From sequence record NC_107631.1: a DNA stretch of 50,078 nt, one strand, 5' to 3'. The notes below the pieces were generated by a model, which saw only the letters and a program-made list of their open reading frames with translations, did no database searches and had not been told where the DNA came from. Each line of letters starts with the position of its first letter. Positions within the stretch are counted from its first letter, which is position 1. Shown here piece by piece: positions 410 through 49,515 of the stretch. The translations under genes and the position numbers were made by a program. The stretch comes from a phage.

Positions 410-891
410 TAAATATAAGAGATGATTTTTTATATGTTGATGGAATTATTTATTATAAGAGTAACACTAGATTTAAAAACCTTGCTGGGAGAGAGGCTGG
501 AAAGTTAGATAGGCTGGGTTACTGTAGGTTTTATGATGGGTTTAGGATGGTTTATAGACATAGATATGTATGGACTATTTTTAACGGCCAGATACCTGAA
601 GGTATGGAAATAGACCACATAAACCATATACCAGGTGATGATAGAATTGAAAATTTAAGACTTGTAACTAGAGAAGGGAACACAACAAATAGAAGTCTAA
701 ATAAAAATAACACATCTGGCATGAATTGCATATACCCTATGAAATCAGGCTCTTACAGGGTAAGAGTTAGATTTAGGGGTAAGACTTACGGAAGGTGCGT
801 TGACACTGTTAGTGAGGCTATAGATTTAAGAGATTCAATACTCATTGATCTTGGTTTTCATGAGAATCACGGATCGAATAGCATTTTTTGA
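406..891 (+). CDS. HNH homing endonuclease (HNH plus AP2-like domain)
   Basis: IDHINHIPGDDRIENLRLVTREGN motif; tail resembles AP2 domain (YRVRVRFRGKTYGRCVDTVSEA); visibly AT-rich codon usage versus neighbours. Confidence 0.8.
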   Translation: MINIRDDFLYVDGIIYYKSNTRFKNLAGREAGKLDRLGYCRFYDGFRMVYRHRYVWTIFNGQIPEGMEIDHINHIPGDDRIENLRLVTREGNTTNRSLNKNNTSGMNCIYPMKSGSYRVRVRFRGKTYGRCVDTVSEAIDLRDSILIDLGFHENHGSNSIF

Positions 892-950
892 AAAACGCGT
901 GTACCATTGGCGGTGTATCATTTACACCGTCAACTAAGGAGTTTATTGTG

Positions 951-2523: not shown

Positions 2524-2931
2524 ATGCTTCTTCTTTTAGATCTGTTCAGGTTCTGCGAAGGTTACGACAAATACACTCGACAGCACATAGCGAAATTTAT
2601 ATACGCCCACAAGGAAAGTGAGCGATTTGCTAAGGCCGCTGGAATGACTCACCGTGAATTTACAAGTGCGCTATCTAAGGAGTTTTGCGCACGTTGCGTG
2701 ACTGAGGGTTATCTTGATTGCAAGGATGGGTTTTACTGGTGCAAGGGAAAGATTAAGCGCCCTGTAATGATGAAGCTGATGTGTATTGATGGCTACAACA
2801 ATCGGTATACGTGGGAAATGATGCACATTGGAGAGATGAGTGATGAAGATTTGTTTGGCGAACGTAGAAACATTGATAGATCGGAACGTCGAATTGTGCG
2901 CAAGGCTCCAGCTTACGAAAGAAGAATTTGA
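2524..2931 (+). CDS. hypothetical protein (Cys-rich, basic C-terminus)
   Basis: 135-aa ORF directly after the previous gene on the same strand; no recognisable motif. Confidence 0.5.
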   Translation: MLLLLDLFRFCEGYDKYTRQHIAKFIYAHKESERFAKAAGMTHREFTSALSKEFCARCVTEGYLDCKDGFYWCKGKIKRPVMMKLMCIDGYNNRYTWEMMHIGEMSDEDLFGERRNIDRSERRIVRKAPAYERRI

Positions 2932-4481: not shown

Positions 4482-4525
4482 ACTATGCCCGAATCCATTC
4501 GGGCGTTTTTATCAATTAGTGCGAT
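4482..4525 (-). promoter_or_regulatory. dyad-motif middle promoter (degenerate site)
   Basis: TCGCAC-TAA-TTGATAA on minus strand; CATAGT hexamer 28 nt downstream, inside inverted repeat GCCCGAATGGATTCGGGC. Confidence 0.45.
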
Positions 4526-6469: not shown

Positions 6470-6513
6470 ACTATACCCGACTTTCGCCGGGTAGTTTTAG
6501 CAATTAGTGCTGA
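6470..6513 (-). promoter_or_regulatory. dyad-motif middle promoter
   Basis: CAGCAC-TAA-TTGCTAA then TATAGT 28 nt downstream inside inverted repeat ACCCGGCGAAAGTCGGGT. Confidence 0.5.
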
Positions 6514-7492: not shown

Positions 7493-7536
7493 ATAATGCC
7501 AGATTCCATCCCGGCAGTTTTAACAAGAAGTGCTAT
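7493..7536 (-). promoter_or_regulatory. dyad-motif middle promoter upstream of dam
   Basis: ATAGCAC-TTC-TTGTTAA then CATTAT/TATTAT 28 nt downstream. Confidence 0.5.
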
Positions 7537-7949
7537 TTCATCATTTCGTAAATTGCGATCTTGAATTGCCCGAATCCGTATGCGACGGCAGAGAAGCCGC
7601 CACGCTCCCGGACCTTTTGGAGAAATTCCCTTTGCTTGTCGCTGACTGGTGACGCCTTTCCTTTTCCTGACTTATTAACCCGCTTAAGTTCGATTGCTGC
7701 AAACGGGTATCGTGAGTTAACACCAATCAGGATAACAAAGTCTGACACTCCTTTAAGTAATCCGGCCTGCTCATCCCTGAGCGCCGATGTGATTGTTTTT
7801 TCACCTTCATTGACAGTGTGCCAAAATAGAAGGTGCGGGAAGTTGTATTTCAGCCAGGACACGCAATCTACCTGGTGCGCGTCCTCTTTCCGTGTATCGC
7901 TGGGATCTCTCTCGTAAAATTCTAAATAATCACCTTTGTCTGTAATCAT
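7533..7949 (-). CDS. VRR-NUC domain nuclease
   Basis: PD-(D/E)XK-like core (GVSDFVIL..ELK); sits immediately downstream of the helicase, a common pairing; GGAGGA RBS. Confidence 0.65.
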   Translation of the reverse strand: MITDKGDYLEFYERDPSDTRKEDAHQVDCVSWLKYNFPHLLFWHTVNEGEKTITSALRDEQAGLLKGVSDFVILIGVNSRYPFAAIELKRVNKSGKGKASPVSDKQREFLQKVRERGGFSAVAYGFGQFKIAIYEMMK

Positions 7950-9958
7950 TCCGGGATATCCTCCATACCGAAGTCTTTACGTGAAATAATATCTTCTTTC
8001 TTCTGGTTGCGACGATGAGTTACGCGCACCGGGTGAGCAATATGATGTGAGTATTGCAAAATCTTGATGGCGTTCTTCATTCCGATAAAGTAGCGGCGCA
8101 TTTTAGGATCTGACACATGAGGTAATACACCTTTCGTTTTCCATAGCGTACCGCAAATCTTAGAGTCAGACTCGGGGAAGAATTTTTCATACGCCTTGAA
8201 CTCATCACCATCGTCGTTAATCAGAGTGTATTTGTATATTATACCTTTCTGGTTTTTGGTTAGCGTAACCTCAAAATTCTTTACTTCATACCAGTCATTC
8301 TTAGTGTACGCCTTACCGGATAACTTCAGGTTAGGATCGACAAGAGAAACATCACAACAACGACAGACTCGCGCAACAACATCATTCTCTGCACCGCATC
8401 CTTTAACAAGGATTTTCCCGGTTCGCTCGTCAACCTGGTCCTCACAAATCTGAGAAGTCCAGAAATGATCGCAACGCTCACCATCAATGACATTAACGCA
8501 TCGTCGAGCATAGAAGCTATTTACGCAACCGCATTTCGGACACGTTTTCGGGTCTTTTCCGTTTTCAAAACGCTTTTGGAATTGTGCCTGCTCAAGTATC
8601 GGATCGAAATAAAGCTGACCCAACTCATCCATCGTACCTGCGAAATCCCATACCAGATGGTCCTGCTTAACCATTCCCTCAGCAACCTGCCAAGATTTAA
8701 GCAGACGCATACCCCTACCCAAAAGTTGAATTAACAGTGTGAGCGACCCTATCTTGCGGAGTATGACACTGAAATCCCAATTTGGAACGTTAACGCCAGT
8801 AGTGAGCGCCATTACCTGAAAGGTGTATTTAATTTTTCCGGCCCTTACATCGTCAAGAATCTTCTTGCGCGCTTTGTTGTCTGTGTCGCCAGTGATGATT
8901 GCATAGGTACTTCCAGGAGGAAGTGCAGCCGCCGCCTCTTTGCAGTGACGCACCCCGGCGCATGTAATCAGTACCGCGTTACGCTCTTCAGCCTTTTTGG
9001 CAACCATTTGCATGATTCGCTGAGTAAGAGATTTATCATGAAGGATCTCATCTTCCATTGCCTTCATATCTTTCTCTGTAAAGTCCTGTACCCCATCCTC
9101 GCTTGAAGCCTTGAATTTATCAAGATCGTAGTGAACTCCGTCCGTCGAACCGAATATAGTCGGCACAACAGAACCGAACTCAATAAGATAATTTGTGTCA
9201 ATATCAGTCACGCGCTCACGCCAGAATCCAAGAGCTTTCGGATTCTCTACCAGAATAGGAACTACACCCCGAAATTCAGATCCAGTCATACCAAATATTC
9301 TGAGATCGTGACCGTGAACCTTTTTACAGCGCCGCATCATTTCCATGATTACGATCGTGTACTGACTGCGCTTAGTTCCAAGCAAAGGTTTTCCATCATT
9401 ACCAATCATGGGGATATCTCCGTCCATGATAACCTTCCCTTTCTCGCCCCTCATCTGCTCCATCGTTTCCTTGCCTTCGATGGCTTGCGCAAGGTCTTCC
9501 CAATCCACCTGGTGACATTCGTCGATCCCAATTACATGCGGTACGAAATCAGCTAACTCATTGTCGAGGCCATTTGCAACAGTACCCTCTGAGCCAACCA
9601 CGATCGGAAAGTAGCAGGACTTGATTCCAAGTGACGCTGAGAAGATGGAGTTCGTTACCCCGAAGTTGTCGATCTCTTCGCTATCCTGATCGACAATCTC
9701 ACCCTGACGAGCCAGGACAAGCATTTTTAAGCCCATTTTCTGACACTGCTTTGCCACCATAGCGAAGATGATTGTCTTACCTGCGGATACAGACGCTTTA
9801 ACGAAGAATGGATGCTCGTAATTTGATAGGCGTTTCGCGATCTCGGCATAAGCAACAACCTGGTACGGATAAGGAACAACCTCACCAACAGTAAATCGCT
9901 CCTGAGTTCTCTTTATATAGTCATCGCCAAGTAATGCAATCTGTTTTTTAATGTTCAT
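7946..9958 (-). CDS. SF2 DNA helicase (DEAH-type) with C-terminal zinc-ribbon
   Basis: Walker A-like SAGKT, motif II IGIDECHQ, C-terminal CPKCGC..C..C cluster; start moved to ATG at Met3 because track start is GTG. Confidence 0.8.
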   Translation of the reverse strand: MNIKKQIALLGDDYIKRTQERFTVGEVVPYPYQVVAYAEIAKRLSNYEHPFFVKASVSAGKTIIFAMVAKQCQKMGLKMLVLARQGEIVDQDSEEIDNFGVTNSIFSASLGIKSCYFPIVVGSEGTVANGLDNELADFVPHVIGIDECHQVDWEDLAQAIEGKETMEQMRGEKGKVIMDGDIPMIGNDGKPLLGTKRSQYTIVIMEMMRRCKKVHGHDLRIFGMTGSEFRGVVPILVENPKALGFWRERVTDIDTNYLIEFGSVVPTIFGSTDGVHYDLDKFKASSEDGVQDFTEKDMKAMEDEILHDKSLTQRIMQMVAKKAEERNAVLITCAGVRHCKEAAAALPPGSTYAIITGDTDNKARKKILDDVRAGKIKYTFQVMALTTGVNVPNWDFSVILRKIGSLTLLIQLLGRGMRLLKSWQVAEGMVKQDHLVWDFAGTMDELGQLYFDPILEQAQFQKRFENGKDPKTCPKCGCVNSFYARRCVNVIDGERCDHFWTSQICEDQVDERTGKILVKGCGAENDVVARVCRCCDVSLVDPNLKLSGKAYTKNDWYEVKNFEVTLTKNQKGIIYKYTLINDDGDEFKAYEKFFPESDSKICGTLWKTKGVLPHVSDPKMRRYFIGMKNAIKILQYSHHIAHPVRVTHRRNQKKEDIISRKDFGMEDIPE

Positions 9959-9977
9959 TGTCACGGCTATTAATCCT

Positions 9978-10006
9978 TTGAATCGTTGTAACGTTTACGC
10001 TATAAT
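9978..10006 (+). promoter_or_regulatory. strong sigma70 early promoter for the HTH regulator gene
   Basis: TTGAAT-N17-TATAAT. Confidence 0.6.
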
Positions 10007-10045
10007 ACACGGCATACAGTAAACGTTTTTAGCAAAAAGTGCTAT
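10002..10045 (-). promoter_or_regulatory. dyad-motif promoter driving the helicase operon, overlapping the divergent early promoter
   Basis: Dyad TTAGCAA-AAA-GTGCTAT (ATAGCAC-TTT-TTGCTAA on minus) with TATTAT 28 nt downstream on the minus strand; the same dyad lies in the 5'UTR of the plus-strand transcript. Confidence 0.5.
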
Positions 10046-10057
10046 AGGAGAATTAAG

Positions 10058-10510
10058 ATGAGTATTCAACGTATCGCAGAGTCAACTGGTGAAATCGATA
10101 AACGTCACATCAATGGTAACAACGGAACACGACGCGGTAAAGATAAAAAGCCACGACAGCGCTGCGGATTCTATATTCATAAAGAAGAAACACGCGCAGG
10201 ATTGCGAGCACGACTTGATGCGCTTATCGAATATTATGGTGGCCCTGCGGCCTGCGCAAAGGCTCTAAAAGTTAGCAATCAGACGGTGCAAGGCTGGAAA
10301 GAACGCAATATGATTTCATGGCAAGGTGCTGAAGCTGCGCATCGTGCTTACCGCCGACAGGGGTGTAAAGGGTTTAGGGCCGCATGGTTGCGATTCGACC
10401 TGAAGTTTGACGGTAACGGCAAGTGCATTGAGAAGCGATGCAAGAACAAGAAGTTTATGCGAGTGGTGAAGAAGGAAGATATCGGGACGACCAATAGCAT
10501 TTTTAGTTAA
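10058..10510 (+). CDS. HTH DNA-binding protein, candidate transcriptional regulator
   Basis: Cro/C1-type HTH signature (AKALKVSNQTVQGW); basic protein; RBS AGGAG. Confidence 0.6.
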   Translation: MSIQRIAESTGEIDKRHINGNNGTRRGKDKKPRQRCGFYIHKEETRAGLRARLDALIEYYGGPAACAKALKVSNQTVQGWKERNMISWQGAEAAHRAYRRQGCKGFRAAWLRFDLKFDGNGKCIEKRCKNKKFMRVVKKEDIGTTNSIFS

Positions 10511-10517
10511 AACAAAC

Positions 10518-10556
10518 GACGCGTAGCGGGTTAATATCCTTCTACGCGTTTTTTAT
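10518..10556 (+). terminator. intrinsic terminator
   Basis: GACGCGTAG-loop-CTACGCGT followed by TTTTTTATTTT. Confidence 0.7.
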
Positions 10557-10571
10557 TTTGGAGATCTGGAA

Positions 10572-11507
10572 GTGAACGAAGAATTTATGATGTTTCAGAA
10601 AGAGGACGTTTTGCCGTACATGAAGGGGTTATGGCGCGAGGCTTTCCAGTCCGTATGCGGATTACCGAACGAGGTTTTCAACAAGAAGCACCAACCTTGC
10701 CCTAACTGTGGCGGCAAGGACCGTTTTCGCTGGACCGATAACTTAAACACTCCGGGCGACGGCGGCGCGATCTGCAACTCATGCGGGAACGATTCCGGGA
10801 TCGGGTGGCTAATGAAATTAACTGGCATGCCGTACAGTGAATGTATAAACATCCTGGGGAGATTTCTCGGAAAGGTTCCACAGGAATACATTGTTAAGGC
10901 AAACAAGAAAGCACGCAGGACTCCGGTCTCTGGCGTCAACGTCATGATGGCAGACCATGAAGCAGTAATGAAAGTTATGGAGCGTACAGAGAAGCGCGTA
11001 AACACACCCCTAAGCATTTTTGAGTCGCTACCCACTGAATCATTCGACGTTGGCGTAAAACGTCGAGAAGATGGCGGGGAGAGCGTATTTCACACTATCC
11101 CGTGTCAACTTGTGCACGAGGATGGACTTGATGACGAGTTTTGCAATATTTTGATTATTGATGAAGAAGGGAGGGAGTCATTTTACGCTAAGAAATATAC
11201 GAGTTGCTCGGTTGCCGTGACTGGTAAAACTGAAAAGGCGATCTACTTATGCCTGAACTGGATTGATGCTCAGCATATTGCATTTCACACAAAGCAAGAG
11301 GTATGGGCCTGCTTCACTCCTGAAAACCTAGAAATGGTTGCGTACAGGTATAAAGGTGATCGAGAAGTAAGAGTGGCGTGCGAACCTTCGGACAAGGAGA
11401 CTTTATACATGGCAGACGACCGACAATTAAAAATAATCATCCCGAATCCTGGAGGATACCGTTCAGGAATGCAAGTCAAATTATTCTCAGCAAGTGACCT
11501 ACTCTAA
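10572..11507 (+). CDS. putative DNA primase-like protein with zinc-ribbon
   Basis: CPNCGG..(N)..CNSCGN zinc-ribbon typical of primases; possible TOPRIM-like IIDEEG; GTG start per track, ATG alternatives 15-18 nt later. Confidence 0.5.
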   Translation: MNEEFMMFQKEDVLPYMKGLWREAFQSVCGLPNEVFNKKHQPCPNCGGKDRFRWTDNLNTPGDGGAICNSCGNDSGIGWLMKLTGMPYSECINILGRFLGKVPQEYIVKANKKARRTPVSGVNVMMADHEAVMKVMERTEKRVNTPLSIFESLPTESFDVGVKRREDGGESVFHTIPCQLVHEDGLDDEFCNILIIDEEGRESFYAKKYTSCSVAVTGKTEKAIYLCLNWIDAQHIAFHTKQEVWACFTPENLEMVAYRYKGDREVRVACEPSDKETLYMADDRQLKIIIPNPGGYRSGMQVKLFSASDLL

Positions 11508-11570: not shown

Positions 11571-11587
11571 TTAGCAATTCGTGCTAT
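11571..11587 (+). promoter_or_regulatory. dyad element in 5'UTR next to RBS
   Basis: TTAGCAA-TTC-GTGCTAT, 6 nt before AAGGAG. Confidence 0.6.
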
Positions 11588-11607: not shown

Positions 11608-13473
11608 ATGGCTTTATATAGACGCGGTACTGCATCAATGGATGCAGACGGCACGGTTCACGGAACCGATACAAAATGGAAAGATCAGCTTGCTCTGATT
11701 CGAGTCGGTGCAACTATCGTATTCCTGGAGCAACCGATTAAGCTGGCGGTAATCAGCGATATTGTGAGCGATACGGAAATGAAGGCTATCTCTACGGATG
11801 GTCAGACTGCAGCTGACGGAAAGTATGTGATCTTGCTTAGCGATTCACTAACCGTTAACGGGCTTGCGCAAAACGTTGCTGAGACGCTTCGATACTATCA
11901 AAGCAAAGAGACTGAGATCGCGGCAGCTATAGACCTGATAAATCAGCTTGACATGACTAAACTTGAGCAAATAGTTACTGAAGTGAATCAGGCAAAATCT
12001 GATGCTCAAGATGCGCAAGGTCAGGCTGAACTAGCTCGTGATGCCGCTAACGCTGCGCGCGATGAAACCAACTCAATCAAGGACCAGGCTCAGGGAATTG
12101 TTGACGGCGCTGTCGATGGAATTAATGCCGCAAAAGACCAAGCGATCACAGATGTAGGCGCTAAAGAATCTGCGGCGGTTACGCACATCGACACGGAAGA
12201 GGCGGCAGCTATTCAGGCAATCAATGACGCTAAAGGCGATCTATCCGGGTATGTTAATGACGCTCAAACAGCTGCACAAACAGCCACATCTGCAAAGAAC
12301 GATGCTCAGTTGGCGCGTAATGATGCTGTTAGCTCAAAAGATGCGGCGGCGGTAAGTGCTCAGGAAGCGAAAGACGCAGCAAATAGCATTAATGCTGAAA
12401 ACCTTTTAACTAAGGATGGAAACCTGGCAGGTTTAACAGATCCAGAGGAGGCAAGGTACAACCTAAAACTGACTGAGTGGGGGTTGTTAAGTGACGCATC
12501 ATCTGCTGGTGTTTCTGATATAAACGCAATATCTGTAAACTGCAATTACAGCGTGCCACCAAAAAACACCAATAATTTAACTGGTACATATCCATTTGAG
12601 CACGTTCAAAATCTTGATGATGGTTGGTTAATTCTTGAAACACGTATGCATCCAGATCCTAATTATGGAATTCAGAGGGCTACTCAATTCACAGGCAATT
12701 CCGCTGGCTCCGTTAGCGTGAGATGCAAGATCAATGGAGCTTGGGGGAATTGGGGTCAGGAAAGAGGATCGCATGGATATCTTGCAAACGTAATACTTGA
12801 CAGAGCAACATTTAGATCTGTCGGTACTGCTTCTGGAGGTGCTGGGGCGTTGGTTGGCGGTGGAGTTGAGGGTGGTGCGTATCAACAATGGAGAGATAGA
12901 GCTACTGGATTACTGGTTGAGGCAATTGCGAAAGATGCAGCGGTATCAATATTCAAGAGTGTAATGTGGGGCCAAGATTGGATTGGGGGTCTTGATTGTG
13001 TTCTATGGGGTGCTGGCAGTAAGGAGATGAAACTTTATACTGGTGGCGCTGAGTTCACTTTTAATTACGCAGGAGTAGCTACAGCAGCTCAGTGGACAAG
13101 TACATCTGATATCAGGCTGAAAACAAATCTTAATAAAATTGAGTCGGCAACCGAGAAAGTGGAGAGGCTCGTTGGTTATACTTACTACAAGAGAAACACC
13201 ATTGAAGAAACTGAAAACTCAAGGTATGAGATTGAGGCTGGTATAGTAGCTCAGGATCTTGAAATGGTTCTACCTGAGGCTGTTCTTAGCATAAACAGCA
13301 AAGGTGAACTCGACCCTAAAAGAGAGGGTATTAAGAGTGTCAATTATGCTGGAGTTGCGGCACTTCTTGTTAACGCATTTAACGAGCAGAAGAAAAGGTC
13401 TGATGAAATGGAGTTAAAAATAAATGAAATGATAAAGGAGATTGACGAAATCAAAAAACTATTGAACAAGTAA
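11608..13473 (+). CDS. tail fibre protein with C-terminal intramolecular chaperone (peptidase S74-like) domain
   Basis: N-terminal coiled/repeat region rich in D-A-Q/A-A-N-A; C-terminal SDIRLKTNL..VGYTYYKRN..EAGIVAQDLE resembles the self-cleaving chaperone domain of T5 pb1/endosialidase fibres. Confidence 0.8.
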   Translation: MALYRRGTASMDADGTVHGTDTKWKDQLALIRVGATIVFLEQPIKLAVISDIVSDTEMKAISTDGQTAADGKYVILLSDSLTVNGLAQNVAETLRYYQSKETEIAAAIDLINQLDMTKLEQIVTEVNQAKSDAQDAQGQAELARDAANAARDETNSIKDQAQGIVDGAVDGINAAKDQAITDVGAKESAAVTHIDTEEAAAIQAINDAKGDLSGYVNDAQTAAQTATSAKNDAQLARNDAVSSKDAAAVSAQEAKDAANSINAENLLTKDGNLAGLTDPEEARYNLKLTEWGLLSDASSAGVSDINAISVNCNYSVPPKNTNNLTGTYPFEHVQNLDDGWLILETRMHPDPNYGIQRATQFTGNSAGSVSVRCKINGAWGNWGQERGSHGYLANVILDRATFRSVGTASGGAGALVGGGVEGGAYQQWRDRATGLLVEAIAKDAAVSIFKSVMWGQDWIGGLDCVLWGAGSKEMKLYTGGAEFTFNYAGVATAAQWTSTSDIRLKTNLNKIESATEKVERLVGYTYYKRNTIEETENSRYEIEAGIVAQDLEMVLPEAVLSINSKGELDPKREGIKSVNYAGVAALLVNAFNEQKKRSDEMELKINEMIKEIDEIKKLLNK

Positions 13474-14612: not shown

Positions 14613-14686
14613 CTTTACTTCTCCTGATTGGTGTATGAGGTGCATTATAACACCTCATTAATTATTTGTTTAGCTATTTGTGCCGT

Positions 14687-15782: not shown

Positions 15783-15810
15783 ATTATAGCCATTAACAGC
15801 GTTTAGTCAA
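15783..15810 (-). promoter_or_regulatory. strong sigma70 promoter for the recombination operon
   Basis: On minus strand TTGACT-N16-TATAAT. Confidence 0.55.
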
Positions 15811-27311: not shown

Positions 27312-27619
27312 GCGCGGTGTCCTGCGAGCGCCTTGATGTAAGTTGCCGTCAGATTGTACGCTGCTGAAGGATAATACTGTACCAGTTTACGCGCATTCTC
27401 TTCGTTAAATTCTTCTTCCAGATTCCATCCTGATGCGATCTTAGTGATGAAATCGCTATCATTCATTTCGCCCTGCTTCGCATACATATCTTGCACTTCT
27501 TTACTGGAAAGGTGGCGTACTGTAAAAATAATAGTCGCATCCTCGCCGTTTGGCATGGTGAACGTCACCGGAAGTTTGAAGTCTGGAAGCTGCCCCAACA
27601 CGAAATTGAATTTAGCCAT
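27302..27619 (-). CDS. tail assembly chaperone (gpG-like)
   Basis: Position between major tail and tape measure genes; ends in slippery site; conserved CAACCAATCAGGAG RBS. Confidence 0.6.
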   Translation of the reverse strand: MAKFNFVLGQLPDFKLPVTFTMPNGEDATIIFTVRHLSSKEVQDMYAKQGEMNDSDFITKIASGWNLEEEFNEENARKLVQYYPSAAYNLTATYIKALAGHRAKN

Positions 27620-27640
27620 GATGTTTCTCCTGATTGGTTG

Positions 27641-27657
27641 ATAGCACTTTTTGTTAA
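27641..27657 (-). promoter_or_regulatory. dyad element immediately upstream of RBS
   Basis: TTAACAA-AAA-GTGCTAT on the coding strand, directly abutting CAACCAATCAGGAG. Confidence 0.5.
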
Positions 27658-27700
27658 AAGTTAAGTGAATAAAGTTGATAGGATGATTTTACAGAAATGA

Positions 27701-31400: not shown

Positions 31401-31429
31401 ATAATAGCACTTTTTGTTAAAGCGTCAAA
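31401..31429 (-). promoter_or_regulatory. sigma70 promoter with embedded dyad element, upstream of the major capsid gene
   Basis: On minus strand TTTGAC-N17-TATTAT with TG extension; the spacer contains TTAACAA-AAA-GTGCTAT; followed by hairpin AAGCCGTG..CACGGCTT and T-run. Confidence 0.5.
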
Positions 31430-38107: not shown

Positions 38108-38632
38108 CTACAGCAATCCAATAACCTTGTCTACCGCGTCCTTCATTGCATCCTCAGTAGTGGCGACCACTGTCGATGCGGAGGCTGACGAGTTTTCGAT
38201 ATTTATTGAGGCTGGCTTATCGATTCCGAGATCCTTACCGATAAAGGAGGCATTAATAACACCGTTGGCGGCAAGCTGAAATTTTTGCTCGTTGATTACG
38301 GATTCCACGAACTCCATAACCTCACTGTATTCTTCCTCACGCTTCCACTTAATGATTGCGGCCTCGCTTGCACCGATAAATAGTCGGTATCCGGTCCAGG
38401 TGAAGACGCGCGGCTTATGAACAAGCGATTCATAAACGCCACCCTGAAAGCTGGCTGATTCTGACGCCTTTATCGCATTGTCTTCAGCCCATTCGAAATA
38501 CTTAACTGACAGATCGAATAGTTGCTCAGGCGTCATTGCCCGGTTCTTCGCAAGAACAGTGCCGAACTTTTTCTTGTATAGCTCTTTGAAATTACCTCCC
38601 TGAACAACGGGGGCGTTCTTAGGTTCACTCAT
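38108..38632 (-). CDS. putative terminase small subunit
   Basis: Position upstream of the large terminase; start moved to Met9 with AGAGGG RBS. Confidence 0.45.
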   Translation of the reverse strand: MSEPKNAPVVQGGNFKELYKKKFGTVLAKNRAMTPEQLFDLSVKYFEWAEDNAIKASESASFQGGVYESLVHKPRVFTWTGYRLFIGASEAAIIKWKREEEYSEVMEFVESVINEQKFQLAANGVINASFIGKDLGIDKPASINIENSSASASTVVATTEDAMKDAVDKVIGLL

Positions 38633-38649
38633 AAATCCATCCTCTTTGT

Positions 38650-38666
38650 TTAACATTTAGTGCTAT
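38650..38666 (-). promoter_or_regulatory. dyad element just upstream of the putative TerS RBS
   Basis: TTAACAT-TTA-GTGCTAT on plus strand; TGGTAAAAT extended -10-like sequence adjacent on minus strand. Confidence 0.4.
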
Positions 38667-38682
38667 TTTACCATATTGCAGG

Positions 38683-40421: not shown

Positions 40422-40453
40422 TTTGATTTTCTCTCTTCGTTGTCGATGAGGTA

Positions 40454-40497
40454 ACTATATCAAATCACCCCATCGACGTTTTAGCAATTCGTGCTAT
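40454..40497 (-). promoter_or_regulatory. dyad-motif middle promoter
   Basis: ATAGCAC-GAA-TTGCTAA; TGaTATAGT extended -10 28 nt downstream inside inverted repeat GTCGATG..CATCGAC. Confidence 0.55.
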
Positions 40498-41708: not shown

Positions 41709-41748
41709 GATTTATTCCTCTGATTGGTTGCTTAACTCAACGAAGGGC

Positions 41749-41792
41749 ATTCTAACAAATACCCTTGAGCAAGTTTTAGCAATTCGTGCTAT
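41749..41792 (-). promoter_or_regulatory. dyad-motif middle promoter
   Basis: ATAGCAC-GAA-TTGCTAA then TGtTAGAAT 28 nt downstream inside inverted repeat AAGGG..CCCTT. Confidence 0.55.
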
Positions 41793-42286: not shown

Positions 42287-42312
42287 TGATAGGTTTTAGC
42301 AATTCGTGCTAT
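42269..42312 (-). promoter_or_regulatory. dyad-motif middle promoter
   Basis: ATAGCAC-GAA-TTGCTAA then TATGAT 28 nt downstream inside inverted repeat GGGAAT..ATTCCC. Confidence 0.55.
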
Positions 42313-43612: not shown

Positions 43613-43802
43613 CTTTCTTTACCTCGAATGTCACGTTCCAGAATTTATTGCCGCATGAATGATAGATTACGTCATGAGATGTTAGTTCGTGCAATGCGTG
43701 CCCGACAATATCCATTCGGTCATTCGGCGTCAGTCCGCGAAGCGATTCACGAAGGCGTGAGGCCTTGTCGTAAATCTGCCACTGAGTTAGTCGTGTAGCC
43801 AT
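43596..43802 (-). CDS. hypothetical protein
   Basis: Start moved to Met15, directly after the conserved CAACCAATCAGAGGAAT cassette. Confidence 0.45.
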   Translation of the reverse strand: MATRLTQWQIYDKASRLRESLRGLTPNDRMDIVGHALHELTSHDVIYHSCGNKFWNVTFEVKKDEQNS

Positions 43803-43842
43803 AGCTGATTCCTCTGATTGGTTGCCATGCTTCAATAAGGCC

Positions 43843-43886
43843 ACTATATCAAATGGCCTTGCGGAAGGTTTAGCAATTCGTGCTAT
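43843..43886 (-). promoter_or_regulatory. dyad-motif middle promoter (cassette family B)
   Basis: ATAGCAC-GAA-TTGCTAA then TGaTATAGT 28 nt downstream inside inverted repeat GGCCA..TGGCC. Confidence 0.55.
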
Positions 43887-44465: not shown

Positions 44466-44509
44466 ATTATACCAGTCAGGACAAATCCCCTTTTAACAAT
44501 TCGTGCTAT
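44466..44509 (-). promoter_or_regulatory. dyad-motif middle promoter
   Basis: ATAGCAC-GAA-TTGTTAA then TGgTATAAT 28 nt downstream inside inverted repeat GGGGATT..AATCCCC. Confidence 0.6.
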
Positions 44510-45205: not shown

Positions 45206-45249
45206 ATAATACCCGATCCGCTCGATCGGGCTTTAACAAAAAGTGCTAT
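45206..45249 (-). promoter_or_regulatory. dyad-motif middle promoter (cassette family A)
   Basis: ATAGCAC-TTT-TTGTTAA then TATTAT 28 nt downstream after inverted repeat CCCGATC..GATCGGG. Confidence 0.55.
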
Positions 45250-46828: not shown

Positions 46829-46859
46829 CTTCGTTTCCTCGTTCGTTGTCGATGGGATA

Positions 46860-46903
46860 ACTATACCAAGCTATCCCGATCCAGCTTTAACAAAAAGTGC
46901 TAT
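46860..46903 (-). promoter_or_regulatory. dyad-motif middle promoter (cassette family A)
   Basis: ATAGCAC-TTT-TTGTTAA then TGgTATAGT 28 nt downstream inside inverted repeat GGGATA..TATCCC. Confidence 0.55.
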
Positions 46904-47911: not shown

Positions 47912-47928
47912 ATAGCACTTTTTGCTAA
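47912..47928 (+). promoter_or_regulatory. dyad element without an obvious -10 partner
   Basis: ATAGCAC-TTT-TTGCTAA; no -10-like hexamer at +28 on either strand. Confidence 0.4.
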
Positions 47929-48116
47929 AAATGGAGATGACTACCAGGCGAACCGGGTAACACCAATTCCTCCCTCTCACAATCATTGCAATCTCAGCAA
48001 CAAATCAACCAACTGTTGCACACCATGCAATAATCACGTTTCATCATTCGCAATCAATAACAATCAAAATTATTCCACCTATTCCAGTATTGATGGAATA
48101 ATGAGCAATTATTGAA

Positions 48117-49471: not shown

Positions 49472-49515
49472 TAGCACAAATTGCTAAAGACACACACCGG
49501 GGAGTGAGTTATATT
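49471..49515 (+). promoter_or_regulatory. dyad-motif promoter
   Basis: ATAGCAC-AAA-TTGCTAA then TTATAT(T) 28-29 nt downstream inside inverted repeat GGGAGT..ACTCCC. Confidence 0.5.

Follow-up and report, generated by a model that had tools for sequence, protein, structure and literature searches.

In the parts of the TLS paper considered here, 18 intergenic direct repeats of 21 nucleotides (nt) with the consensus aaATAGCACnnnTTGnTAAAA are described; they run along the direction of transcription, and start codons follow about 76 nt further downstream (PMC11447400). There, its authors mention similar, unpublished repeats in T1, Rtp and Rogue1, find only three sigma-70-like promoters in TLS, suggest that the repeats could be stoperators, enhancer sites or UP elements, and count their function among the open questions for T1-like phages (PMC11447400). 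Here we analyse one copy of this element in a stretch of phage DNA of 50,078 nt (NC_107631.1, in its full length called the window), where it lies between a helicase operon with its promoter P_left and a gene for a putative helix-turn-helix regulator with the divergent promoter P_right.

A second known element is the marbox, defined as the non-palindromic 5'-GCANNWWNTGNNAAA-3' and assigned to class II if it overlaps the -35 region in forward orientation (PMC12052159). RamA is a class II activator at about -41 on micF, and its site at acrA of Klebsiella pneumoniae is at about -71.5 (PMC8811837). At the Escherichia coli PacrA/acrR promoters, studied in the Grainger laboratory, SoxS activates acrA, acrR becomes repressed through competition between polymerases, and bound SoxS does not block elongation (PMC12825309).

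On balance, the dyad between the two genes of the window is probably the core of an asymmetric activator site for P_left, read by a host activator of the MarA/SoxS/Rob type. On this best explanation, the site at 10045..10026 would belong to the helicase-operon promoter and not to the rightward gene. The element as such is already described; its reading as a class II marbox and a marbox-controlled bidirectional promoter at this locus were not found in the literature searched.

The element at the regulator/helicase locus

The features of the locus on which the following rests are:

7946..9964, minus strand: helicase gene with a GTG start at 9964, heading the leftward operon behind P_left
9978..9983, plus strand: -35 hexamer TTGAAT of P_right, the sigma-70-type promoter of the Cro-like gene, with a 17-nt spacer
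10001..10006, plus strand: -10 hexamer TATAAT of P_right, predicted start at about 10013, kept in most of seven genomes
10007..10002, minus strand: -10 hexamer TATTAT of P_left, the helicase-operon promoter, predicted start at about 9995
10045..10026, minus strand: marbox-type element of 20 base pairs (bp), ATAGCACTTTTTGCTAAAAA, forward for P_left at about -50 to -31; the dyad 10030..10044 is its core
10046..10050, plus strand: Shine-Dalgarno sequence AGGAG of the Cro-like gene, adjoining the element; the abutment is kept in 7 of 7 genomes
10058..10510, plus strand: Cro-like regulator gene, 150 amino acids (aa), all-alpha Cro-type helix-turn-helix fold; N-terminal 35 residues invariant, disordered and basic

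The dyad TAGCA-N5-TGCTA (TAGCAAAAAGTGCTA, 10030-10044, zero mismatches) covers about +18 to +32 of the predicted rightward transcript and ends 1 nt short of the Shine-Dalgarno sequence (10046-10050). Seen from the other strand, the locus copy ATAGCACTTTTTGCTAAAAA matches the TLS consensus aaATAGCACnnnTTGnTAAAA, belongs to the T subtype, is intergenic, and points at the helicase gene about 82 nt upstream of its GTG. It shares with the TLS repeats the consensus, the intergenic position, the orientation along transcription and the A/T/G spacer subtypes; the passages of the TLS paper considered here mention neither a -10 hexamer at a fixed distance nor the marbox match nor the copy common to the divergent regulator and helicase promoters (PMC11447400).

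An earlier note on this DNA, made from its letters alone, had proposed a rightward promoter TTGAAT-N17-TATAAT with the dyad in the leader of the helix-turn-helix gene, and this promoter is found exactly so at 9978-10006. It is the single sigma-70-type match between 9000 and 11000 (10 of 12 positions); since 3.1 such matches are expected in shuffled sequences, it is not significant by itself. The T1 and SA32RD records carry an annotation of this promoter, and the form TTGnnn-N16/17-TATAAT is kept in most of the seven genomes. The TATTAT hexamer of P_left and its orientation were also named correctly, whereas the distance of 28 nt to the dyad was only approximate: it is 22 nt from the edge of the dyad and 29 nt from its centre. 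Three features go beyond what the note saw: the overlap of the two -10 hexamers, an inverted repeat around them, and the longer, asymmetric element of 20-21 bp with the dyad as its core.

The -10 hexamers of P_right and P_left overlap by 5 bp and read TATAATA on opposite strands (10001-10007). The starts predicted from the sequence, 10013 and 9995, would be about 18 bp apart and flank the common -10 region. Divergent layout with a common -10, sigma-70-type rightward promoter and an element abutting the Shine-Dalgarno sequence of the regulator gene were found together in all seven genomes compared. A search of the literature for published start sites or RNA-seq data on T1-like phages returned nothing usable.

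Comparison with the marbox and with micF

Perfect matches to GCANNWWNTGNNAAA occur 17 times in the window, the locus copy among them; 0.97 are expected and no shuffle reached 17. Six non-redundant genomes from six genera hold 96 perfect matches, 72 of which have a -10-like hexamer exactly 20 nt downstream, where 1.8 would be expected at any one offset. The micF promoter of E. coli K-12, read directly, is GCACTGAATGTCAAA-N20-TAGAAT-N7-start, so that orientation and spacing are those of the phage module; micF is the one host promoter to which this comparison of spacing extends. For fumC, considered as a second one, the -10 could not be placed with confidence. The mar marbox of K-12, ATGCCACGTTTTGCTAAATC, is identical to the locus copy ATAGCACTTTTTGCTAAAAA at 15 of 20 positions.

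Phage module and micF have in common a forward marbox over the -35 region, a 15-mer of the form GCAC..TG..AAA, 20 nt to a TAnnnT hexamer, 7 nt from there to the start, an activator position at about -41 and a poor -35. They differ in that micF is one chromosomal promoter with a less consensus-like box (ACAGCACTGAATGTCAAAAC), whereas in the phage about 17 boxes are nearly identical, the leader is conserved and the spacer mostly contains a hairpin, and binding of a Mar-family protein is putative there. At the locus, the consensus match, the forward box over the -35 region, the distal GCAC end, the weak -35 and the micF-like spacing are all present, as in a class II marbox.

The TTGCTA within the element is not a true -35, since there is no -10-like hexamer 17 nt downstream; the consistent hexamer follows at 22 nt, too far for sigma-70. 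A box that replaces the -35 is known from the middle promoters of phage T4 (MotA/AsiA), which likewise combine a sigma-70 -10 with an upstream TGCT-containing box. The T4 MotA box, however, has its centre at -30 and stands some 12 bp away from the -10, whereas the TTGCTA found here is 22 bp from the -10 and thus not at the position of a MotA box.

Anatomy of the promoter family

Allowing at most one mismatch, TAGCANNNNNTGCTA occurs 20 times in the window versus 1.46 expected, and none of 100 shuffles reached 20. A de novo search for 5-N-5 dyads returned TAGCA-N5-TGCTA as the top over-represented one in five of six genomes. Copies with their flanks were read in the window, T1, a Braunvirinae phage, a Webervirus, BHUENT2 and a Hanrivervirus; Vc1 and Motto were added afterwards. 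Anatomy, statistics, conservation in seven genomes and identity to the marbox consensus and the micF geometry are all shown by the sequences.

From these copies a common promoter module can be described. In all genomes read, the element is followed by a -10-like hexamer (TATAAT, TATAGT, TATTAT or CATAAT) 22 nt past the 15-bp core, that is 18 nt past the 20-mer. The element itself spans -50 to -31 and is centred at about -41/-42. About 80% of the copies have a G at -14, and a predicted CA start lies about 7 nt past the hexamer. The leader contains a conserved CATCGAAACGAA, then GGAG, then the ATG. At the -35 position the family reads AAAAc; the AAAACG at the locus matches TTGACA at 2 of 6 positions. 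This arrangement is present at about 17 promoters in this genome and at about 100 in other genera.

The conservation of the element is asymmetric. C-44 and T-40 are both near-invariant and not complementary, A stands at both -50 and -34, position -37 is C or T against its fixed dyad partner G-47, and positions -42/-41 are A or T. The 5-bp arms are symmetric, but these positions break the symmetry that a palindromic operator would show. To avoid circularity, the consensus was derived again from 47 promoters picked by leader and -10 alone, and these gave the same upstream sequence at the same position with the same asymmetry.

Furthermore, the region between the element and about +8 often forms hairpins of variable sequence, frequently GC-rich and frequently with the -10 in the loop (for instance 9990-10027, 40440-40480, 43830-43868 and 46846-46885). 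For 72 promoters the mean folding energy of this region is -12.2 kcal/mol versus -5.2 kcal/mol in shuffles, and it is -8 or lower in 76% versus 15% of shuffles. Among them are true terminators that carry the -10 in their loop, for example the one before the primase gene (10495-10559). The hairpins may end upstream transcripts, as terminators or insulators. At the locus the hairpin is formed by two arms:

9990..9998: left arm AACGTTTAC of the inverted repeat around the two -10 hexamers
10019..10027: right arm GTAAACGTT, a local instance of the variable hairpins at 76% of the family promoters

The inverted repeat AACGTTTAC/GTAAACGTT is restricted to relatives of T1 and its sequence is not enriched elsewhere in the genome. 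The palindrome centred on AACGTT was considered as a candidate for the dyad of the earlier note and is not enriched either (GTAAACGTTTAC, 3 matches versus 2.0 expected; TAAACGTTT, 13 versus 16.8); it is local to the regulator/helicase promoter and T1. The rightward leader (10013-10075) gave no evidence of a structured RNA, its minimum free energy being -6.3 kcal/mol with z = -0.12 against shuffles.

On the primase side, the degenerate element in 10495-10559 overlaps the end of the Cro-like gene, and a -10-like TAATAT in the terminator loop faces the primase gene. Terminator and promoter are here one structure, and Webervirus cp3 is similar.

Besides CATCGAAACGAA, a second leader motif, CAACCAATCAGGAG, stands before many start codons (for example 43800-43830, 41710-41740 and 27600-27640). 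In Vc1, ACCAATCAG is the commonest 9-mer, with 18 copies.

A probable host activator and proposed competition between polymerases

As marbox sequence, orientation and spacing are like those of micF, a host protein of the MarA family would be the most likely activator. Rob is the constitutively abundant member of the MarA/SoxS/Rob family, and RamA exists in Klebsiella and Enterobacter. From the features of the locus we infer the two starts, the binder and the competition as follows. The activator would bind as a monomer and help sigma-70 RNA polymerase to bind P_left. P_left has no usable -35, and an activator at -50 to -31 would load polymerase leftward. Since TATAATA is common to P_left and to P_right, which needs no activator, and is read on opposite strands, RNA polymerase should occupy one orientation at a time. 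Leftward loading would then lower transcription of the Cro-like gene through polymerase competition and not through a roadblock in its leader. Such a roadblock is not needed for repression, because bound SoxS did not block elongation at PacrA/acrR.

The PacrA/acrR pair resembles the phage locus in its divergent promoters with a common symmetric -10 and in a marbox activator that raises one promoter and lowers the divergent regulator gene (PMC12825309). It differs in three respects. The acrA marbox is class I, while the phage element is class II; the phage P_right is near-consensus (10 of 12), so that basal competition may already be strong; and the divergent phage gene codes for a Cro-like protein, whereas acrR codes for a TetR repressor of both promoters.

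The suggestion in the earlier note that one bound protein activates to the left and represses to the right is therefore plausible, from the class II position, the overlapping -10 hexamers and the PacrA/acrR precedent, but its attribution to the 10058..10510 protein found no support (see below). Nor was the proposed early-to-middle switch borne out: a host activator that is there from time zero would need no temporal switch.

Extending this to the genome is more tentative. Perhaps most non-structural promoters of T1-like phages (Drexlerviridae), some 12-20 in each genome, are class II marbox promoters. If the pool of host activator is fixed, it might serve as a timer, with early promoters activated and the late promoters held down until replicating DNA titrates the activator away, and the regulator/helicase node might set the level of the Cro-like protein. 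The late promoters enter here because the family also has copies in reverse orientation, in or just after the sigma-70-type promoters of the late genes for the major capsid protein, the tape-measure chaperone and the tail-fibre-like protein. The one in the spacer of the major-capsid promoter (31401-31428) is conserved in five genera. These reverse copies occupy positions that are expected to repress, which suggests that a factor activating early promoters may hold late promoters down.

If a host activator does read the element, gene expression of T1-like phages would be tied to MarA/SoxS/Rob/RamA and responsive to antibiotics, bile and oxidative stress; a classic T phage and a family common in Klebsiella and E. 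coli therapy collections would depend on multidrug-resistance regulators, and bile, salicylate, oxidative stress and mar or ramA mutations would all bear on phage productivity. It would also be a natural case of a phage promoter class built on a host activator with none encoded by the phage, and the regulator/helicase locus would show, in compact natural form, how polymerase competition controls a bidirectional promoter. The class II marbox reading brings a concrete and cheap test to the question of the 21-nt repeats, listed as open in the parts of the TLS paper considered here (PMC11447400).

Distribution among phages and hosts

The complete module of element, spaced -10 and leader CATCGAAACGAAGGAGG is also present in T4-like Straboviridae, namely Klebsiella phage KP27 and Cronobacter phage JC03. 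In KP27 (601-680 of the compared stretch) the 15-mer is followed after 20 nt by TATATT and the leader CATCGAAACGAAGGAGG, and this copy is annotated as 'putative middle promoter'. The module of JC03 is at 878-960 of the compared stretch. Records of about 175 kb have three to five such places each.

Several observations weigh against a host activator. KP27_182, which lies beside a module, has a Webervirus homologue with 66% identity; this suggests that gene cassettes are exchanged between unrelated Klebsiella phages, and the T4-like copies may for this reason be recent transfers and not independent evidence. Motto was published as a phage of Pseudomonas aeruginosa and Vc1 as a Vibrio phage, and the sites are kept in both. 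P. aeruginosa is not known to have an orthologue of MarA, SoxS or Rob. Should these hosts be genuine, the phages would have to encode the factor or do without it. Between 12 and 17 perfect marbox promoters of the enterobacterial type are present in phages whose recorded hosts are Pseudomonas, Vibrio or Campylobacter (Motto has 45% G+C), so that either the recorded hosts are doubtful or the promoters work without MarA/SoxS/Rob. The phage sites are also more dyad-symmetric than host marboxes, with A3 and T12 invariant where the consensus has N, which leaves room for a dimeric reader. With a G at -14 in about 80% of the copies, part of the promoters may be of the extended -10 kind and need no activator. 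A preprint with 1,050 genome-wide screens, including 64 T1-like phages, never names rob, marA or soxS in its main text; this silence argues against strict dependence on a single gene, though three paralogues could mask it. Finally, no published link of marboxes or of rob, marA or soxS to T1-like phages was found in the literature searched.

Alternative readers of the element

The earlier note had taken the 10058..10510 product as binder and autoregulator. Spelled out, a Cro-like dimer on TAGCA-N5-TGCTA would activate P_left from -42 as lambda cI does at PRM, repress its own gene from +18 to +32, and drive all the other copies. We consider this unlikely, although the protein is genuinely helix-turn-helix: it has a sub-threshold Pfam match to P22_Cro, its PHROG is annotated as transcriptional regulator, and its AlphaFold2 model is confident for residues 35-140 (mean predicted local distance difference test, pLDDT, 81), with the all-alpha Cro proteins of Xfaso 1 and N15 as best structural matches (template modelling score, TM, 0.71-0.73). 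Cro proteins usually bind palindromes as dimers, which fits the protein's Cro fold, the half-sites 10 bp apart and a dyad that is the only enriched one in the genome. The gene comes with a near-consensus promoter and a terminator of its own. It belongs to the core genes, tblastn showing homologues in 824 phage records, and every homologue sampled was in a record no longer than about 54 kb. Element positions 3 and 12 are invariant in the sense that completes the dyad, and the sites persist in the phages reported on Pseudomonas and Vibrio. The copy abutting the gene's Shine-Dalgarno sequence in 7 of 7 genomes would also suit autorepression, but is explained by a promoter of about 80 nt packed into an intergenic region of 93 nt.

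What speaks against this protein is the site itself, which is a perfect marbox and whose asymmetric conservation tracks the marbox consensus position by position, including the degenerate positions. Neither does operator vary with helix. The predicted recognition helix is SNQTVQGWK in the window and similar in most genera, whereas it is CCVRLTNAY in the clade of Vc1 and Motto, and yet the site is unchanged there, with 12 perfect and correctly spaced copies in Vc1 and 17 in Motto. T4-like phages moreover keep the module, although no homologue of this protein was seen in them, and the SoxS precedent makes a roadblock in the leader unnecessary. A Cro-like protein that accumulates would, through the reverse copies inside late promoters, shut off the late genes. 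Another palindrome in the regulator/helicase spacer was considered as its operator, but these palindromes are small, not conserved, and coincide with the variable hairpins.

The likeness to lambda cI at OR2/PRM lies in a site at -42 of the activated promoter, a divergent partner and an adjacent gene for a helix-turn-helix regulator. Lambda operators, however, are multiple and symmetric, and they change along with the repressor from one lambdoid phage to the next, while here one asymmetric site is invariant across genera; PR and PRM furthermore have no common -10. If the Cro-like protein were the reader after all, it would be a class II activator with about 17 targets, new for Drexlerviridae.

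The N-terminal 35 residues of this protein (10058-10162) are predicted to be disordered (pLDDT about 50), yet they are its most conserved part; STGEIDKR..NGNNGTRRGKD..R is invariant in 24 homologues. Either a conserved basic arm or a peptide that binds a partner would fit.

A different phage factor, such as the conserved, putative helix-turn-helix protein of 135 aa encoded at 2524..2931 or a small conserved early protein, appears quite unlikely, and so does its variant with two readers, in which a host marbox activator comes first and the Cro-like dimer then competes with it and turns these promoters off. Several small proteins are conserved in 7 of 7 genomes, the T1 annotation lists two further putative helix-turn-helix proteins, and the element is a marbox with additional dyad symmetry. 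Yet the candidates have no Pfam match and the module is also present in T4-like phages. Neither was a MarA-like protein of the phage found: the best E in a tblastn search of the window with MarA and SoxS was 2.1, and Pfam searches of six conserved open reading frames detected no AraC-type domain.

It is very improbable that no specific protein is involved and the element is a UP-like element, a stoperator or a terminator-promoter junction, options raised in the parts of the TLS paper considered here (PMC11447400) and in keeping with the hairpins, some of them true terminators, at most copies and with the many extended -10 sequences, since the invariant GCAC and TTG are unlike a UP element, a stoperator needs no fixed distance of 20 nt to the -10 as seen in 72 of 96 copies, and the element lies upstream of the predicted start and would thus not be transcribed from its own promoter; as for the MotA box, position and composition led us to reject the UP element and the stoperator.

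Other copies in the window and neighbouring genes

Besides the locus copy, the family has the following members in the window:

881..895, plus strand: perfect marbox 15-mer, -10-like TATCAT 20 nt downstream
4508..4522, minus strand: -10-like CATAGT 20 nt downstream
6496..6510, minus strand: TATAGT 20 nt downstream
7521..7535, minus strand: upstream of the Dam methylase gene, CATTAT 22 nt past the 15-bp core
11572..11586: perfect dyad copy at about +2 to +16 of a promoter TTGCAA (11536)-N17-TAAAAT (11559), upstream of the Shine-Dalgarno sequence of the tail-fibre-like gene 11608..13473
27644..27658, plus strand: antisense to tail genes, just upstream of the tape-measure chaperone gene
31407..31421, plus strand: reverse orientation, in the spacer of the major-capsid promoter TTGACG-N16-TATTAT (31428..31401)
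38649..38663, minus strand: overlaps the start site of the small-terminase promoter TGGTAAAAT; this overlap exists only in the window and T1
40480..40494, minus strand: TATAGT 20 nt downstream
41775..41789, minus strand: TAGAAT 20 nt downstream
42295..42309, minus strand: TATGAT 20 nt downstream
43869..43883, minus strand: TATAGT 20 nt downstream
44492..44506, minus strand: TATAAT 20 nt downstream
45232..45246, minus strand: TATTAT 20 nt downstream
46886..46900, minus strand: TATAGT 20 nt downstream
47915..47929, plus strand: perfect dyad, without a good -10 at the canonical spacing
49474..49488, plus strand: TATATT 21 nt downstream

The source of the window is a T1-like phage: positions 9400-10700 share 96% identity with coliphage T1 and 92-95% with many Tunavirus genomes. 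Leftward of the locus lie the genes for the helicase, a VRR-NUC nuclease and a Dam methylase. Rightward follow the gene for the putative regulator of 150 aa (10058..10510), a terminator and the primase gene:

10519..10559, plus strand: intrinsic terminator 3' of the Cro-like gene; in and around it a degenerate element (10495-10509) and TAATAT (10532-10537) directed toward the primase gene

The small-terminase gene, the first late gene, has a terminator followed by an extended -10 promoter in every genus (TGGTAAAAT, TGTTATAAT, TGCTATAAT and similar; 38600-38680 and six other genomes). The element over this promoter was dismissed as a family feature, as it is found in the window and T1 only.

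The promoters of the exonuclease VIII and Erf recombinase genes have a real -35: TTGACT-N16-TATAAT (11 of 12; 15783-15810, minus strand) and TAAACA-N17-TATAAT (14644-14672, minus strand). The genome therefore mixes activator-independent and element-dependent promoters. The leader of the exonuclease VIII gene resembles those of the element-dependent promoters.

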